Source: Candidatus Omnitrophota bacterium (GTDB lineage Bacteria > Omnitrophota > Gorgyraeia > Gygaellales > Profunditerraquicolaceae). Taken from it: a stretch of DNA of 64,000 nt. The notes under the pieces were generated by a model. That model searched no databases and was not told the DNA's origin. It worked only from the letters and a program-made list of their open reading frames with translations. Positions 16,401 through 45,693 of this stretch are shown here, piece after piece. Position 1 is the first letter of the stretch, and every line of letters begins with the position of its first letter. A program made the position numbers and the translations under genes. The stretch is from assembly GCA_018822885.1 (NCBI GenBank), contig JAHJJA010000047.1:5384-69383 (forward strand), read 5' to 3'.

Positions 16401-16735
16401 CGCGGGGTGGAGCAGCCTGGTAGCTCGCAAGGCTCAATGTCTCGCCTATACATGTATGGGCGTACGATGGGCTATTCAGCCGGTAACGGCTGAAGGATAG
16501 TCGGTCAAATTCGGTGAAGCCCGAAAGGGTAATACCGAGCCAAGCCTGCGCAGTTTTGCTTTGCAAAACGAAGCAGCACAGGAAGGTGTAGAGACTAAAC
16601 GGCCGAGACCCTTCTTAAGGAAGGGCCAAGATATAGTCCAGACTACGAATTTGCCAGAGTAGCGGCAAAGCGGCGAAAGCCGAAGTAGTATGCATAACCT
16701 TGAGGTCATGCGTTCAAATCGCATCCCCGCAACCA
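16401..16735 (+). tRNA. Initiator tRNA-fMet (CAT) interrupted by a group I intron in the anticodon loop
   Basis: Exon 1 (16401-16434) is CGCGGGGTGGAGCAGCCTGGTAGCTCGCAAGGCT, with C1 mispaired against A72, A11:U24 and the D arm of bacterial initiator tRNA. Exon 2 (16693-16735) supplies CATAA, CCTTG, AGGTC, the T arm ATGCG-TTCAAAT-CGCAT, CCCCGCA, discriminator A and CCA. Mature loop would be CUCAUAA. Confidence 0.8.
16435..16692 (+). ncRNA. Group I intron (IC3-like), 258 nt, no ORF
   Basis: It follows exon U33 and ends in G. It contains P7-P8-P7'-like AGACTAAACGGCC...CCCTTCTTAAGGAAGGG...GGCCAAGATATAGTCC. It also contains GTCAAATTCGGTGAAGCC, CCGAGCCAAGC and GAAGGTGTAGAGACTA, which I recognise from the Azoarcus tRNA-Ile and cyanobacterial tRNA introns. 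Many GNRA-type hairpins are present. Confidence 0.7.
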
Positions 16736-40773: not shown

Positions 40774-40952
40774 TGATTTGGTGCGGGACAAGCGCATCGA
40801 TTATTCGCGCCTGTAGCTTTAGTGAAGCCATAACTTATGGAGCGTAAGCGAACATAAGTTATATGGCTGAACTAATCCCGCACCAATAGGCATTAAACAT
40901 ACTTTATTGATTTGGTGCGGGACAAGCGCATCGATTATTCGCGCCTGTAGCT
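40774..40952 (+). repeat. 134-nt structured repeat unit plus partial second copy fused to the 5' end of tRNA-Arg
   Basis: TGATTTGGTGCGGGACAAGCGCATCGATTATTCGCGCCTGTAGCT occurs at 40774 and again at 40908, where it runs into the tRNA. Inside the unit, TTGGTGCGGGA (40777-40787) and TCCCGCACCAA (40876-40886) flank a hairpin GCCATAACTTATG-GAGCGTAAGCGAA-CATAAGTTATATGGC. Confidence 0.65.
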
Positions 40953-41013
40953 CAATGGATAGAGCGCTAGCCTTCGGAGCTAGGCGTTGGAGGTTCGACT
41001 CCTCCCAGGCGCA
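40941..41013 (+). tRNA. tRNA-Arg (anticodon TCG)
   Basis: Acceptor GCGCCTG/CAGGCGC, D arm GCTC-AATGGATA-GAGC, anticodon stem CTAGC/GCTAG with loop CTTCGGA, T arm GGAGG-TTCGACT-CCTCC. Confidence 0.85.
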
Positions 41014-41028
41014 AGAGGAATTCAAAAA

Positions 41029-41343
41029 ATGAAAAAGTGCCCGTTTTGCGCGGAAGAAATTCAGGATGAAGCGATAAAATGCAGGTATTGCGGCGAGTTG
41101 ATTAACGCCAAAGCCAAGACGCCGTGGTATTTAAAGACTTCTACTTTAATAGTGGCTCTGTTGTGCGTCGGGCCGCTGGCCTTGCCTTTGGTCTGGCTTA
41201 ATCCGCGCTTTTCCAAGAACCTAAAAATAATCATCACATTGATCATAATCATTATAACTTATTATTTCGCTGCCTTGACTATAAATTCAGTCAAGAAGAT
41301 CTCTGATTATTATCAGAAAATGCAGCAGCTTAACTTGTATTGA
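41029..41343 (+). CDS. Zinc-ribbon membrane protein
   Basis: N-terminal CPFC-N14-CRYC zinc ribbon followed by two TM helices. Start moved to the ATG at 41029. Confidence 0.5.
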
Positions 41344-41382
41344 TATTTTTGTGGTTTTTAAAAGCGAGGAAGGAGGGCTAAT

Positions 41383-41859
41383 ATGAGAAAAGCCGGATAT
41401 TATTTATTTTTGAGTGTTTGTCTTATATTGTTAGCTTCTATGGCATATTCCGATGACCAGGGAGACAAGAGTTTTCTTAGCCCGGACAGGATATATGGTG
41501 TTGATAAGCCAAATGCGCCGCCCTCTTTTGGGGCAAGTTCCGGTACCGGAGCTTTTTTAACCCCGGACAGGGTTTACGGTGTTGACAAACAAAGAGCGCT
41601 CTCTTATGAAGCCGGGAATCTCCGTTTTAAGACAAAGCCGACCACGGATGCGGCAAAACCTAAAATACCCAGAAAAAGCGGTTGTCAGTATGATTCTGAT
41701 TGCTCCGGAGGAAAGGTCTGCGTGAAAACAAGGTTTAGCAGTGATGGCATCTGCGCCTCAAGGGATGAAAAACAGAGCTATATCGACGGGAGTTATAAAA
41801 AGAAGAAGAAAGCCAAAGAAGATATCCATAATAAGACCTGGCAAGACTTTGATTACTAA
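41383..41859 (+). CDS. Secreted hypothetical protein with internal repeat and Cys-rich C-terminal module
   Basis: Signal peptide. Repeats LSPDRIYGVDKPNAPPSFGASSG and LTPDRVYGVDKQRA. Four-Cys motif CQYDSDCSGGKVCV...GICAS. Confidence 0.5.
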   Translation: MRKAGYYLFLSVCLILLASMAYSDDQGDKSFLSPDRIYGVDKPNAPPSFGASSGTGAFLTPDRVYGVDKQRALSYEAGNLRFKTKPTTDAAKPKIPRKSGCQYDSDCSGGKVCVKTRFSSDGICASRDEKQSYIDGSYKKKKKAKEDIHNKTWQDFDY

Positions 41860-41879
41860 AGGACAAAAGATTAATTTTC

Positions 41880-41909
41880 TTTACAATTTTGGAATGAAAG
41901 TGTTATAAT
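41880..41909 (+). promoter_or_regulatory. Sigma70-type promoter upstream of pilin gene
   Basis: TTTACA-N18-TATAAT. Confidence 0.45.
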
Positions 41910-41980
41910 TGAGGGAAGAAAAAAGTAAGCTGGTATATTAAAGAGAATTCCAGCAAAACATAGAATAAAGGAGGAGGGAA

Positions 41981-42346
41981 ATGTTCAATAGGAAAGGTTT
42001 TACGCTTATCGAGTTGGTCATGGTCATTGTCATCTTAGCTATCCTTGCTATTGTGGCGATCCCGAAGTATTTTGACCTTCAGAATGACGCCAAGGCATCG
42101 GCAGAAAAAGGCGTAGTCGGCGGTGTCAGGTCCGGTGTTTATTCTTACTATGCCCAGTACAAGACATTCCCTGCTGCTCTTGATAACGCTACCGTGGCAG
42201 CTTGTACTTCCACGAATCCGTGTTTTACCAATGTCTTAGGCCAGGGCGGCCTTTATCCGGACTGGACCAAATCAAGCTCTAACACCTATGTCGGTCCTAC
42301 AAACACTACCTATACTTACACCGCGGGTACAGGCGAGTTTAATTAA
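41981..42346 (+). CDS. Type IV pilin / pseudopilin
   Basis: Prepilin N-terminal cleavage/methylation motif GFTLIELVMVIVILAIL. Confidence 0.75.
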   Translation: MFNRKGFTLIELVMVIVILAILAIVAIPKYFDLQNDAKASAEKGVVGGVRSGVYSYYAQYKTFPAALDNATVAACTSTNPCFTNVLGQGGLYPDWTKSSSNTYVGPTNTTYTYTAGTGEFN

Positions 42347-42493
42347 AGGAGGGATGAATGCGACGCGCGCATAAACACAGAAGGCTAAAGAAGCATCATC
42401 ATAAAAAACATATGAGTCTTCTACAGGCGATCAGAATGTACGCCGGTATGCCGGTGGGTTCCTAGGAGCTTAAGGCACGACTCTAAAGCTGGA

Positions 42494-42519
42494 GTAGGGC
42501 ACACTTAAGTGTGCCCTAC
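42494..42519 (+). other. Perfect 11-bp stem / 4-nt loop hairpin downstream of pilin gene
   Basis: GTAGGGCACAC-TTAA-GTGTGCCCTAC. No U-tract follows. Confidence 0.5.
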
Positions 42520-42557
42520 CGGAAACAAGGGTTCGGGCCTTGGAGGGGGGATAAATC

Positions 42558-43037
42558 ATGAAAGCACTATTAATGTTTATTGCGTTTATTGCTGTTTTGT
42601 CGATGATTGCGATAGCCTATGGGCAGGGACCGGCTCCGTCTATGATAAATTTTCTCAACAGTTATAACAACCCGAGATTTGAAGCTGAACACCAGCAGGA
42701 CGCCGATAGCGCTTTTATAAAAAGTATGAATGCCCAGACTTACCGCTATTATTATGATTCTCCGGTCAGCAAGGCAAGCGACGGGTTTATTAACACCACG
42801 ACTTCTTGGGCGGATATATTTTATGAGGTCGGCAAGACTTCCGCTGATGATAATATCTTAAGCGGGATAACCTTTGGGTTAGGTAAAGGGCTTGCATCGA
42901 GCATTACGCGCGGGGTTGCTGGAGTTGCCGATATAACGACTTCGGCGTTTCCTCCTTATGATAAACCTTTAGTCGCTACAGAGTATAAGGTCGTCGCTCC
43001 GCAGAAGGAGTTTAAAGTAAATATACTCGAGTGGTAG
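42558..43037 (+). CDS. Secreted hypothetical protein
   Basis: Signal peptide. No recognisable domain. Confidence 0.5.
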   Translation: MKALLMFIAFIAVLSMIAIAYGQGPAPSMINFLNSYNNPRFEAEHQQDADSAFIKSMNAQTYRYYYDSPVSKASDGFINTTTSWADIFYEVGKTSADDNILSGITFGLGKGLASSITRGVAGVADITTSAFPPYDKPLVATEYKVVAPQKEFKVNILEW

Positions 43038-43047
43038 AGGTACAGGG

Positions 43048-44928
43048 TTAGTTTTCCCTGAGTTGTTTTTCCGCGTCGACCACATCGCGGTTTATAACGC
43101 GTATGGTCTCGCGGATTTTGTCTTTTAAGAGATAGGAAGCCACTCTGGCATCGGATATTTCACGCAGGGTTTGAATGCTCATGCGAAAATAGCGCACTAC
43201 CTCACCTTCATCGACATCTGTAAAGCGTAACATTTTCTCAAAATTAGTTCCGCGCAGCCATGCTTCCATGGCGACACTTAAATGAAAATAAGGGAGCTTG
43301 CTGAAAGGATATATTCTGTAGCGTTCTTCTTTATGCTTGATGCGGTCGTAAGTTTCTTCGCAGACGCGTTTAATACTTCTGGTACCTTTTGAAATCCCCA
43401 CAGGCATGCGTTGGTTTTTGCGCGGTTCAAATACTACTCCGGCAGCAATCACGCCTAAACCAAATTCATCTAATTGTTCCAGAACATTATCTTCGTAAAG
43501 TTCGGATAAGATCAATTCATAGCCGTAAACGCTTTTTGCGAACTGTCCCTTTTGGCTTAATACTCCGTCATGGATATATCCAAGTTCTTTCAGGAGCCTT
43601 AATTTTGCATCAATAAGGCGCAGGGCTTCTTTCTGCTCATTTTTGCGCGACTGAAAATAGTGCAAAGAGAGTGGGTAAACCTTAAAAAGTTCCTCTTGGT
43701 ATTTTTCGTAAAGATTGAGTATTGTGGCATAAGAAGTATTTAGTTGGCTTCTGACTTCTTCAGGTTTTCCGAATATTACGCGTTTTGCGTCTTCTAACTC
43801 TATTCGGTGTAAATTCACTCTGCAATAAACAAAACCTTCTTTATCAATTCCGCGCCTGCCTGCGCGTCCTGCCATTTGATAAAAATCGCGCGTTTTTAAA
43901 TTACGCACATATTTACCGTAGAATTTACGCAGGTCATCAAACATCACTGAACGGCTAGGCATATTTATGCCAAGGGCAAAAGTCTCGGTAGTAAAAATGA
44001 CTTTGAGCAGACGGCTGGTAAAAAGGCGCTCAATCACTTCTTTTAAAGTGGGAAGCATTCCTGCGTGATGATAGGCAATTCCGCGCTGGATCAAGGGAAA
44101 CATATCTTGTGCGGTGCGGTCGGTTTTGACATCAAAACGCTCGCACAGATTATTGTATATTTCAACGATTTGCTGTTTTTCTTTGCCATTAAGAAAATTA
44201 TGGTGCATGGACTCAAAGGCAAGCTCTTCTGCGCGCCTCCTGCCAAAGACAAAGTAAATCGCAGGCAGACCGTCTTTTTGATTAAGGTAGCTGATCAGGG
44301 TGCTTAGTTTATTAGGCCTGCCGTATTTAAGGCGCTTTAAGTGGTCGATCTTATCTACGATTTCATTGCCGCACTGGAAAAAGAAATGTAAGGGCACAGG
44401 GCGCTTATCTTCAATGACCACTTGGACCGGTTTATTGTGGATGGATTCGATCCAGGCTGCAAATTGTTTGATATTAGGAATAGTCGCGGACAGGCCCAGG
44501 ATTTTCATATGTTTGGGCAGGAAAATCAGTGACTCTTCCCAGACAGTTCCGCGTTCAGGATTATCTATGTAGTGGATCTCATCGAAAATGATCCATGTAT
44601 ATTTGTCCAAGCTGGTAGGTTCATCAAGGATTTTATTGCGGAAAATCTCTGTGGTCATGATCAGCACAGGTGCTGCCGGATTAATAGATACGTCTCCGGT
44701 AAGAATGCCGATCTGGTCGCCGAATTGACTTTGGAAATCGCGGAACTTCTGGTTAGAAAGGGCTTTAATAGGGGCGGTGTAGATGACCCCGAATCGATTC
44801 TGGATAGAAGTGGAGAGGATGTGCTCTGCTATCGCGGTCTTTCCGGCTCCGGTGGGAGCCGAAACAATCACCGAATGCCCCTGATTGATGTGGCCTATGG
44901 CTTCTTGTTGGAATTTGTCGTAAACCAT
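43048..44928 (-). CDS. Ski2-like DEAD/DEAH-box helicase
   Basis: Walker A APTGAGKT, DEIH box, helicase C domain. ATG at 44928 preferred over the track's GTG at 44967. Confidence 0.75.
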   Translation of the reverse strand: MVYDKFQQEAIGHINQGHSVIVSAPTGAGKTAIAEHILSTSIQNRFGVIYTAPIKALSNQKFRDFQSQFGDQIGILTGDVSINPAAPVLIMTTEIFRNKILDEPTSLDKYTWIIFDEIHYIDNPERGTVWEESLIFLPKHMKILGLSATIPNIKQFAAWIESIHNKPVQVVIEDKRPVPLHFFFQCGNEIVDKIDHLKRLKYGRPNKLSTLISYLNQKDGLPAIYFVFGRRRAEELAFESMHHNFLNGKEKQQIVEIYNNLCERFDVKTDRTAQDMFPLIQRGIAYHHAGMLPTLKEVIERLFTSRLLKVIFTTETFALGINMPSRSVMFDDLRKFYGKYVRNLKTRDFYQMAGRAGRRGIDKEGFVYCRVNLHRIELEDAKRVIFGKPEEVRSQLNTSYATILNLYEKYQEELFKVYPLSLHYFQSRKNEQKEALRLIDAKLRLLKELGYIHDGVLSQKGQFAKSVYGYELILSELYEDNVLEQLDEFGLGVIAAGVVFEPRKNQRMPVGISKGTRSIKRVCEETYDRIKHKEERYRIYPFSKLPYFHLSVAMEAWLRGTNFEKMLRFTDVDEGEVVRYFRMSIQTLREISDARVASYLLKDKIRETIRVINRDVVDAEKQLREN

Positions 44929-44957
44929 TGATGAACTCCGTTTTTGCTTAGAAACGT

Positions 44958-45083
44958 CACCCCGCACCTTTTAATTATTCATGTTTTTAAGATTAATAAA
45001 TGAATATTAAAAAGGTGCGGGGTAAGTTCGCACAATAAGTTATGTCGCTTAGATTCTCAAATAGCTGCTCCATAACTTATGTG
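44958..45083. repeat. Long perfect inverted repeat plus a CATAACTTATG-stem hairpin related to the tRNA-Arg-proximal element
   Basis: 44958-45022 is CACCCCGCACCTTTTAATTATTCAT-N16-ATGAATATTAAAAAGGTGCGGGGT. 45031-45083 is CACAATAAGTTATG-TCGCTTAGATTCTCAAATAGCTGCTC-CATAACTTATGTG, whose stem and TCGCTTA loop match the 40828-40865 hairpin in the opposite orientation. Confidence 0.6.
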
Positions 45084-45107
45084 CTCACTTATTATAATCT
45101 AATTTTG

Positions 45108-45135
45108 TTGATTTATCTAATAAAAATAGTACAAT
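45108..45135 (+). promoter_or_regulatory. Sigma70-type promoter, possibly giving a leaderless mRNA
   Basis: TTGATT-N16-TACAAT ends 6 nt before the ATG at 45142. No RBS is visible. Confidence 0.35.
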
Positions 45136-45141
45136 GATGGC

Positions 45142-45693
45142 ATGAGTTATAGCGTGGCAATTAATAAGGCCTGGGAGGAGTTTGTAAAGTTAAATCCCCC
45201 AAAGGAACTGGCTGTAAAATTCCTTGCCGATGAATATTCTGTTAATATTATAGGTAAGCAGGTGCTTTCACTTTCCTGCAATGTCCCGGCCAAGGAGTAT
45301 GTAGCGATAATTATTTTGCATTTTTTGGCTAAAAAACTAAAGGGCTTGCCTGCTTTGACAGGCGAGTGGTTGCCCTTTCGTGAATTCTCCGGGATTGAGG
45401 GCTATTTTGATGCCTTTAAGAAACGCTCTATTGAGCCGATCCTAAGAAAATACGGTAAAAATCCTGAGGCGATCTTAGCCGGCCTTGATAAGCTGCCTGT
45501 GAAAAAAGCTGAAGGCGGCGATGTAGGGATTGTCGTGCAGGCATTTGAACAGGTGCCGGTTTTAGTCAAGCTCTGGAAGGCGGATGAGGAATTTGGCCCA
45601 GACGCTAACATTTATTTTGATAGAAGCGTTACGTCCATATTTTGCACCGAAGATATCGTTGTCCTGGCAGGTATAGTCGCAAGTCAATTATAG
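45142..45693 (+). CDS. Hypothetical protein
   Basis: 183 aa, no signal peptide, no recognised motif. Confidence 0.5.
   Translation: MSYSVAINKAWEEFVKLNPPKELAVKFLADEYSVNIIGKQVLSLSCNVPAKEYVAIIILHFLAKKLKGLPALTGEWLPFREFSGIEGYFDAFKKRSIEPILRKYGKNPEAILAGLDKLPVKKAEGGDVGIVVQAFEQVPVLVKLWKADEEFGPDANIYFDRSVTSIFCTEDIVVLAGIVASQL

Follow-up and report, generated by a model that had tools for sequence, protein, structure and literature searches.

What the palindromic DNA between two divergent genes of a Candidatus Omnitrophota bacterium is, and whether it serves those genes, is the question raised by a stretch of 64,000 nt from contig JAHJJA010000047.1 (hereafter, the window). In this window, the ATG of a Ski2/HelY-like helicase gene and the ATG of a DUF3786 gene (45142) are separated by a 213-bp gap containing two adjacent hairpins, and similar hairpins stand beside a tRNA-Arg gene. 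A preliminary description of the window left open whether these repeats were "mobile or regulatory", which is a fair statement of the question. In the analysis reported here, the odd hairpins beside tRNA-Arg and beside the helicase gene turn out to be copies (W1 and W2, respectively) of one element, which recurs in at least 82 assemblies and folds in a single, defined strand. On balance we lean towards reading it as a non-autonomous repeat akin to repetitive extragenic palindromes (REPs) and bacterial interspersed mosaic elements (BIMEs) or to MITEs (miniature inverted-repeat transposable elements), read by some factor as a single-stranded hairpin and surviving only in orientations compatible with gene expression. 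The parts of W2 are as follows.

45091 to 44959, minus strand: W2, two adjacent hairpins with their sense on this strand.
45023..45091, minus strand: main hairpin module (HP2) of W2, including the CATAACTTATG hairpin, delimited by the covariance model, by covariation in 125 copies and by the minimum free energy fold.
45087-45091 with 45023-45027, minus strand: HP2 stem P1.
45085-45086 with 45028-45029, minus strand: HP2 outer tandem G·A.
45081-45084 with 45030-45033, minus strand: HP2 stem P2.
45034, minus strand: HP2 1-nt bulge.
45071-45080 with 45035-45044, minus strand: HP2 stem P3.
45069-45070 with 45045-45046, minus strand: HP2 inner tandem G·A.
45047-45068, minus strand: HP2 apex.
44959..45022, strand unassigned: central (variable) hairpin of W2, GC-rich at its base, ACCCCGCACC..GGTGCGGGGT, and AT-rich in the upper part of the stem.

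Repeat search places the arms of the first hairpin at 44959-44987 and 44995-45023 (29 nt, 86% complementary, 7-nt loop), and the second, CACAATAAGTTATG-N26-CATAACTTATGTG with a 1-nt bulge, stands at 45031-45083, where the preliminary description had put it. The "25-bp perfect inverted repeat" of that description is likewise found in its place as a hairpin but is not perfect, since 3 of the 25 positions in the arms as quoted do not match (22 of 25 do). The RNA fold calculated for the minus strand from 44929 to 45094 has a free energy of -56.9 kcal/mol (z = -8.3 relative to shuffled sequences) and consists of precisely this pair of hairpins. The box CATAASTTATG, allowing up to one mismatch, has four matches in the 64 kb, located only at 40829, 40853, 45034 and 45071; the expected count is 0.93, and four were reached in 0 of 100 shuffles. 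That the second hairpin re-uses a stem in the opposite orientation, as was also remarked, carries little information because CATAASTTATG is its own reverse complement except for the central base. The inversion instead concerns the whole element of ~100-130 nt, and the shared "TCGCTTA" loop start is the reverse complement of the TAAGCGA conserved at the 3' side of the apex.

The relationship between W2 and the tRNA-Arg locus was examined at the following features.

40774..40818, plus strand: first copy of a perfect 45-bp direct repeat (second copy, 40908-40952).
40819..40875, plus strand: HP2 of W1, upstream of tRNA-Arg (covariance model, 74.2 bits, and fold).
40876..40923, plus strand: central hairpin of W1, TCCCGCACCA-N28-TGGTGCGGGA (repeat search and fold), with its 3' arm within the second copy of the 45-bp repeat.
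40941..41013, plus strand: tRNA-Arg (TCG), 18 nt downstream of W1.

Aligned in reverse complement, W1 (40814-40928, plus strand) and W2 (44936-45100, minus strand) score 83.5, against 39.7 +/- 6.0 for shuffled sequences (z ~7). A covariance model (R1) built on 125 copies of the element returns W1 (E = 4e-15) and W2 (67.1 bits, E = 2e-13) as its only significant matches in the 64 kb, the opposite strands scoring 17-19 bits (17 bits for the plus strand of W2). The alignment and the model scores thus uphold the proposal that W2 is a tRNA-independent relative of the tRNA-Arg element. They also dispose of the refuting possibility raised with it, that the similarity to the element at 40774 reflects low-complexity matches expected by chance. 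A chance pair of palindromes in AT-rich intergenic DNA has virtually no probability left: nothing speaks for it beyond the general abundance of intergenic hairpins, and E values of 1e-13 to 1e-15, the shuffle controls and hundreds of homologous copies elsewhere already refute it. The arms CCCCGCACC/GGTGCGGGG of W2 do match up with TCCCGCACCA/TGGTGCGGGA of the tRNA-Arg element, as had been described; the GGTGCGGGG arms are not, however, the ends of a transposon with terminal inverted repeats, which they had been likened to, but the clamp of an internal hairpin, and the same clamp type, CCCGCACC/GGTGCGGG, also occurs in W1 and in three of the loci collected from other sequences (L053, L107 and L124). 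Further matches to GGTGCGGGG in the window (16851 and 53897) lie in ordinary sequence, without palindromes.

Three pieces make up the 45-bp repeat at tRNA-Arg, namely the 3' arm of the W1 central hairpin, a spacer of 18 nt and the initial 12 nt of the tRNA (GCGCCTGTAGCT), so that W1 is directly preceded by a copy of tRNA-Arg nucleotides 1-12. The same junction between tRNA position 12 and the start of HP2 occurs twice in tandem at the tRNA-Arg gene of locus L120, and the 5' fragment of the tRNA seems to have been co-duplicated with the element at both genes. Both the 45-bp repeat of the window and the 12-13-bp repeats of L120 take in element sequence and look like local duplications.

To delimit the family, species-representative genomes and viral contigs were scanned with the pattern ACTTATGGAG-N(5-35)-GA-N(0-1)-CATAAGTYAT, a procedure that biases the recovered copies toward the consensus. 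In the genomes, the scan yielded at least 119 loci in at least 82 assemblies, where by our own arithmetic ~8 chance matches are expected. The assemblies are nearly all labelled Candidatus Omnitrophota, together with a few third-party annotation (TPA) bins whose labels begin with Planctomycet and two contigs labelled Nitrospirota; the viral contigs gave 2 chance matches only, both within coding sequence. An nhmmer census over 947 kb of collected loci, in which genes were called by heuristics on open reading frames (ORFs), found 176 non-overlapping copies, ~93% of them intergenic. Among these copies are 18 convergent (inverted) doublets of 145-267 bp, and W1 and W2 are singlets. One genome (JAPLLS01) harbors five copies that are set within unrelated flanks and show 83-88% identity along 125 nt, and the same subtypes recur across different genomes. 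The copies in the Nitrospirota-labelled contigs (L019 953-1026 and L099 684-757) are ~80% identical, with the outer G·A antisense and the apex and inner G·A sense; either the tip of the hairpin has been flipped, or these contigs are mis-binned Omnitrophota. A literature search on words of the sequence, and on Omnitrophota combined with repeat, hairpin, MITE or RAYT (REP-associated tyrosine transposase), returned no description of the family, which is apparently undescribed so far.

The unit of ~130 nt consists of an HP2 hairpin of 57-90 nt followed by a variable central hairpin with a GC-rich base. Its sense strand reads tTAAATGAGnnCATAACTTATGGAGc[apex]GACATAAGTTATnTGnnCGAATTTA, continuing directly into (T/C)CCC...GGG(G). 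Within HP2, P1 (5 bp) is followed by a tandem G·A/A·G, P2 (4 bp), a bulge of 1-2 nt, P3 (10 bp), a second tandem G·A/A·G and an apex, and the logo of the 5' end in 122 copies is TT(A/T)A(A/G)TGAG. The P4/apex hairpin varies, often closing in GNA, GNNA or GNRA loops (for example, GCGAAGC or GCGTAAGC). The module is 57 nt long in W1 and 69 nt long in W2, reaching ~90 nt in other copies, with 9 to ~45 nt between boxes. The central hairpin falls into a few recurring types, such as CCCTTGACAT.., CCCCGCACC.., CCCCACACCAATTG.. and TCCGAGGCATGAGCGG.., some of which carry tandem G·A of their own.

In the 125-copy alignment, 91.7% of cells in the structure are paired, compared to 82.2% in column shuffles, and the covariation score of 0.235 exceeds both the shuffles (0.087; 0 of 500 as high) and slid partners (0.015-0.05), with P1 and P2 abounding in double changes. 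Because P3 and the inner G·A had been set by the search pattern, they were checked on 39 full-length copies lying outside that pattern, in which 97.5% of pairs are Watson-Crick and the outer GA/GA is kept in 36 of 39. P3 covaries in these copies at pair 21-73 (TA 21, CG 13, AT 3), pair 24-70 (CG 26, GC 7, TA 5) and pair 28-66 (TA 25, CG 10). Individual copies show the same behavior: in locus L004, where the DUF3786 protein is 72% identical, two copies in the helicase/DUF3786 spacer differ by compensatory changes, CATGACTTATG/CATAAGTCATG and ACCCTTGACAC/GTGTCAAGGGT.

These observations bear on the possibility that the element is an operator in double-stranded DNA, at which a dimeric factor bound to the CATAASTTATG boxes and the GC-rich palindrome would control the divergent promoters. 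W2 does adjoin a bidirectional promoter, and each CATAASTTATG box is palindromic in this genome. Elsewhere, however, the boxes are not self-palindromic and yet remain complementary to each other (CATGACTTATG/CATAAGTCATG, ACAACTTACG/CGTAAGTTGT), their spacing varies over the range given above, P1 and P2 covary freely, and the asymmetric GA/GA is conserved, which a symmetric duplex site would not need. Moreover, most copies sit between co-directional genes or beside tRNAs, not at promoters. Since what is kept is that the arms complement each other, and not that either arm is palindromic, a single-stranded hairpin is favored over a duplex operator, which we regard as improbable.

The strand in which the hairpin forms is also defined. 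The HP2 sense strand is more stable than the antisense by a mean of 4.3 kcal/mol (122 of 128 modules), owing to the G·A motifs and apex loops, and the central hairpin shows no such asymmetry (43 versus 39). What the data demand, therefore, is folding of one particular strand in single-stranded form, without distinguishing RNA from DNA. Several other interpretations of parts of the unit were discarded, two of them by inspection. The 3-nt bulge that adjoins the G·A pairs of a kink-turn is missing next to the tandem G·A motifs, and the -10-like TAAGTT has no -35 at a fixed spacing, because the apex varies in length, and is not a promoter within the element. A mini-ORF in the 5' strand, ATG-NNN-NNN-TAA, has no Shine-Dalgarno sequence (SD), is missing in ACAAC variants, is irrelevant for antisense copies and can be set down as a by-product of the stem.

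The position of the units with respect to genes is the principal evidence for the most serious alternative. Two subtypes can be distinguished. GAGG units (aTAAGTGAGG..) lie in sense directly after a gene, and a TAA or TGA in their first 9 nt is the stop codon of that gene. GAGC units (TTtAAATGAGC..) have the antisense orientation, and 0-17 nt separate their 5' end from the SD or start of the gene that comes next. GAGC units are found at 55 starts and 1 stop and GAGG units at 11 starts and 21 stops (Fisher p = 2e-11). Replication strand and transcription, the two possible causes of this polarity, can be told apart where GC skew disagrees with gene direction, as it does in only 2 loci. Nearly all doublets combine one unit of each subtype in the order stop, GAGG unit, central hairpin, inverted GAGC unit, SD-ATG. 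The SD was considered as a component of the element, but the position of CCTCC floats and the motif is rare without an adjacent gene start (0/23, 7/29 and 2/28 in other contexts), so that the SD belongs to the gene. At tRNAs, locus L048 (5879-6680) carries three consecutive tRNA genes, without encoded CCA, each of them followed from the discriminator base onward by HP2 and a central hairpin. In L022 and L127, a unit lies upstream of a tRNA that we take, from its anticodon loop by eye, to be tRNA-Trp.

Such placement is what would be expected of a cis-acting RNA module selected by the host and not mobile, that is, of a phylum-wide intercistronic signal for a conserved RNA-binding protein or RNase, which would separate, stabilize, terminate or translationally tune cistrons and tRNA precursors, and which here would make up a regulatory helicase leader. 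The polarity of the subtypes to transcription, the order of the doublets and the tRNA array of L048 all fit this explanation, as do the occupation of the same loci in different species (the tRNA-Arg junction of the window and L120, the helicase leader and the rplA-rplJ spacer) and the retention of pairing by compensatory changes in paralogous copies. Its main difficulty is that GAGC units keep both tandem G·A on the gene-antisense strand, so that the mRNA would have U·C/C·U loops in their stead. Functional RNAs also usually show an excess of G·U, and the stems show none over A·C (13 versus 9, and 4 versus 4 in the 39 non-pattern copies). The element is present or absent at orthologous sites, different central hairpins occupy one site, and neither a U-tract for intrinsic termination nor an Rfam family accompanies it. 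With Rfam 15 at the gathering threshold, the window and 18 other loci yielded only tRNA, group I intron and c-di-GMP-I matches, and W1 and W2 in E-value mode matched only generic miRNA hairpins, 40-200 bits below threshold. No intrinsic terminator was found in 44700-45400, where the hairpins are followed by AAGUUCG or GACGUUUC and no U run. We accordingly consider the RNA module a tenable but less probable explanation, which could also represent a domesticated state of the repeat that we favor. Matches to the c-di-GMP-I riboswitch lie in the Omnitrophota loci L065 (814-893, 73 bits) and L017 (1944-2153, 36 bits).

The bearing of W2 on the flanking genes depends on its position relative to their promoters. 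Promoters, transcription start sites (TSSs) and statements at the RNA level are inferences, and filled and empty sites are taken as orthologous on the strength of protein synteny.

45091..45135, both strands: predicted bidirectional core promoter, outside the repeat, TTATAATCTAA..TTGATTTATCTAATAAAAATAGTACAAT (promoter scan and conservation in eight orthologous loci).
-35 TAGATA at 45114-45119 and -10 TATAAT at 45091-45096, minus strand: helicase promoter, TAGATA-17-TATAAT (consensus match).
-35 TTGATT at 45108-45113 and -10 TACAAT at 45130-45135, plus strand: DUF3786 promoter, TTGATT-16-TACAAT (consensus match).
44929..44958, minus strand: remainder of the predicted helicase leader, GACGTTTCTAAGCAAAAACGGAGTTCATCA, with a GGAG SD at 44936-44939, 7 nt before the ATG.
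43048..44928, minus strand: Ski2/HelY-like helicase gene with DEAD and DSHCT domains (ATG, complement of 44926-44928).
45142..45693, plus strand: DUF3786 gene, divergent from the helicase gene, which served as query for orthologous loci.

The promoter core is kept in the window and in L004, L006, L036, L129, L131, L133 and L135, and the divergent order of the two genes is kept among relatives. The element had been said to overlap the likely promoters of both genes. The core instead lies outside it, save for base 45091, which is both the last T of the helicase -10 and the first base of P1, and wholly outside the interval originally noted (44958-45083). W2 follows the -10 box of the helicase promoter and precedes the start codon of that gene; relative to the DUF3786 promoter, it is upstream and outside. 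The element itself is the promoter of neither gene.

Five orthologous sites (L006, L133, L134, L135 and L136) are empty. Their 58-bp spacer holds little beyond TTATAATCTAAAAT..TTGATTTATCTAATAA.AAATAGTAAAAT, in which the promoter scan identifies face-to-face sigma-70-like promoters, and the stretch 44929-44958 of the window has no counterpart in L006, L133 and L135. In these three sites (L006 9943-10000, L133 2943-3000 and L135 2943-3000), the respective -10 box is followed after 6 nt by the ATG of the helicase gene and after 12-13 nt by the start codon of DUF3786; in the window, the DUF3786 ATG lies 6 nt past its own. Because starts follow the -10 boxes by 6-13 nt, the genes appear to be leaderless or nearly so, which suggests that leaderless mRNAs may occur in these Omnitrophota. 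Among the other loci, the singlet of L036 differs in its central hairpin, the full doublet of L131 leaves 3 nt, and no SD, between the end of its GAGC unit and the ATG, and L004 has one copy on either side of the promoter core. In GCA_026387355.1 (L129/L130), an unrelated GC-rich insert of ~200 bp occupies the same helicase-leader site, giving five states in all: empty, singlet, doublet, a copy on each side and unrelated insert. That insert (L129 2744-3000/L130 1-287) contains a long GC-rich hairpin, AGCGGGTGACTGCCGAGACGGTGACC...GGCAGGCAGGACCCGCT, has no match to the HP2 model and may represent a second repeat family in the same niche. The rplA-rplJ spacer behaves comparably, measuring 1 nt in L022, carrying no HP2 copy in L100 and being filled from stop codon to start codon or SD in L044 and L098. 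As judged from these sequences, the element would be an addition to a compact promoter region and not the promoter, at a site that was probably filled several times or repeatedly remodelled.

The paralogues of JAPLLS01, the subtypes common to different genomes, the filled and empty sites and the doublets are the grounds on which we favor amplification of a repeat. The element would spread, or would once have spread, in the form of a single-stranded hairpin, aided by a factor whose gene is located elsewhere. At the helicase locus, the comparison of orthologous sites indicates that W2 took its place past the -10 box and ahead of the start codon, where transcription from TAGATA-17-TATAAT would make it the initial ~135 nt of a helicase leader of ~155 nt. 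This leader is predicted to fold into two stable hairpins followed by the SD, so that the helicase would shift from leaderless to leadered, SD-dependent expression, and the stability or translation of its mRNA may be altered.

BIMEs join Y and Z REPs head-to-head through few linker types, and the Omnitrophota doublets likewise join two unit subtypes head-to-head through few linker types. The resemblance to REP, BIME and REPIN sequences extends to multi-copy extragenic hairpins in intergenic, probably transcribed DNA, to the occurrence of singlets and inverted doublets, to termini that give stop codons, to conserved mismatches and to subfamilies common to related genomes. The ends of REPs, too, provide neighboring ORFs with stop codons, and RAYT requires conserved mismatches in single-stranded REP DNA (PMC3733652). 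In contrast with the short (20-40 bp) GC-rich imperfect palindrome by which that article defines a REP (PMC3733652), the Omnitrophota unit measures 57-90 nt plus a second hairpin, and its main stem, the 10-bp P3, is AT-rich. It differs further in the two tandem G·A motifs of HP2, in a polarity of subtypes to genes that is strict, and in a core sequence kept over at least 82 species of a phylum, REP sequences being usually species-specific. The GTAG/CGTC tag of REPs is not found in the 5' end of the unit, GTAG preceding it only at the tRNA-Arg fragment flanks of W1 and L120.

Correia/NEMIS elements of Neisseria, ERIC/IRU elements of enterobacteria and RUP/BOX elements of pneumococci are co-transcribed MITEs that fold in mRNA. 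The Omnitrophota element resembles them as a set of intergenic palindromes of ~100-250 bp that are present or absent at orthologous sites, as seen from protein synteny at helicase-DUF3786 and rplA-rplJ, and that often lie near starts and promoters, and it is likewise expected to give transcript hairpins with an effect on processing and stability. Terminal inverted repeats are a feature of the doublets, with their inverted units of ~70 nt, but not of the singlets W1 and W2. Unlike in MITEs, each "terminal repeat" is a long covarying hairpin, no cognate insertion sequence (IS) is known and the phylogenetic spread is far wider. With the subterminal hairpins of IS200/IS605 elements and their PATE derivatives, the element shares imperfect hairpins read on one DNA strand, no need of terminal inverted repeats and no demonstrable target duplication; in IS200/IS605, however, both end hairpins lie on the same strand and insertion occurs 3' of a fixed tetra- or pentanucleotide, whereas the units of Omnitrophota doublets are inverted and no fixed 5' target is seen. 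Taken together, the tandem-G·A architecture, the directional two-subtype cassette and the phylum-wide conservation are unusual traits.

The likeness to attC sites of integrons raises the alternative that the element is a site of specific recombination, either with W1 and W2 bracketing an invertible or excisable 4.1-kb segment (tRNA-Arg, four small genes and the helicase gene) or with the units acting like attC. W1 and W2 are mutually inverted, and the small genes that they bracket are absent at that position in relatives; as in attC, structure counts over sequence, the non-Watson-Crick features are strand-specific, and the units are directional and flush with ORF ends, from the stop to the next start. 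Yet the unit consensus contains no R''/R' core sites (RYYYAAC/GTTRRRY), neither IntI nor cassette arrays accompany it, and the flanking genes are housekeeping genes and tRNAs, not cassettes. No integrase stands beside the copies, the only Phage_integrase genes being XerC/D-like and ~7 kb off in a conserved dprA-topA context. The orientation on the helicase side is the same in 3 assemblies of the species, and the copies are mostly single and dispersed. Recombination is thus very hard to reconcile with the evidence.

The reading of the element as an amplified REP/BIME- or MITE-like repeat has weighty points against it as well. No RAYT, Y1 or other transposase gene was found among the 936 ORFs in the 8-kb neighborhoods of the at least 119 loci, where only housekeeping families recur, and the 10 ORFs bracketed by copies (convergent pairs 0.4-4 kb apart) are ordinary metabolic genes, with no transposase or parent IS. 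TA or TAA is frequent at both ends of the element but belongs to the covarying P1 stem and is inseparable from a target-site duplication, so that no such duplication is demonstrable. No filled and empty pair is alignable at the nucleotide level, the only 4 syntenic pairs being all filled, and insertion is consequently inferred only through protein-level synteny. Because the intergenic helicase/DUF3786 sequence is identical in 3 independent assemblies of the source species, no recent movement is visible here. The transcription of the element and the helicase TSS rest on consensus matches. Finally, the polarity of the subtypes suggests selection at the level of the host rather than a purely selfish element, as do the flush placement at stop codons, SDs and tRNA ends, in genomes whose spacers are very short, and the fact that the core sequence is kept in at least 82 species; the compensatory changes within individual copies were also counted toward such selection.

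The wider surroundings of the two copies offer further observations. The DUF3786 protein (45142) has 99% identity with an NCBI protein of GCA_018824265.1. Between tRNA-Arg and the helicase gene, 41029-43037 encodes four small genes (a Zn-ribbon membrane protein, a secreted protein, an N_methyl pilin-like protein and a hypothetical protein), the gene of the secreted protein having an internal 47-nt repeat (41472-41599). Relatives carry NUDIX/Macro, DUF192 or NTP_transf_5 genes in their place, and this variable islet has W1 on one side and W2, in inverted orientation, on the other. Between the pilin-like ORF and ORF 42558-43037, the bases 42494-42519 form a perfect palindrome of 13+13 bp with zero spacer, GTAGGGCACACTT followed by AAGTGTGCCCTAC. 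Elsewhere in the window, a tRNA-fMet(CAU)-like gene at 16403-16731 (plus strand), not called by ARAGORN, has its anticodon loop split by a group I intron (Rfam Intron_gpI match at 16438-16657, 58 bits; exons CGCGGGGTGGAGCAGCCTGGTAGCTCGCAAGGCTCA ... CATAACCTTGAGGTCATGCGTTCAAATCGCATCCCCGCAACCA).

Omnitrophota are uncultivated, often ultra-small bacteria with compact genomes, and to our knowledge almost nothing is known of how their gene expression is organized. Of the few intergenic spaces in these genomes, the element fills many, and it would provide a leader for genes that otherwise look leaderless. A bolder proposal, which we put forward as speculative and rather unlikely, is that it constitutes a directional, phylum-specific intercistronic cassette, in which one subtype ends the upstream frame and the other leads to the next SD or start, or follows a tRNA 3' end, both being read by a dedicated protein for tandem-G·A hairpins. 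Such a cassette would amount either to a new system of RNA processing or insulation, which would serve the compact operons and tRNA arrays of Omnitrophota, or to a RAYT-less mobilization of single-stranded DNA. In practical terms, the RNA/DNA motif and its covariance model can be used in annotation, as a handle on the reader protein and as a marker of insertion dynamics in metagenome-assembled genomes. For the phylum, the element is one of two things, a cis-acting signal of major importance or a genomic parasite that is comparable to REPIN-RAYT and has persisted for an unusually long time.

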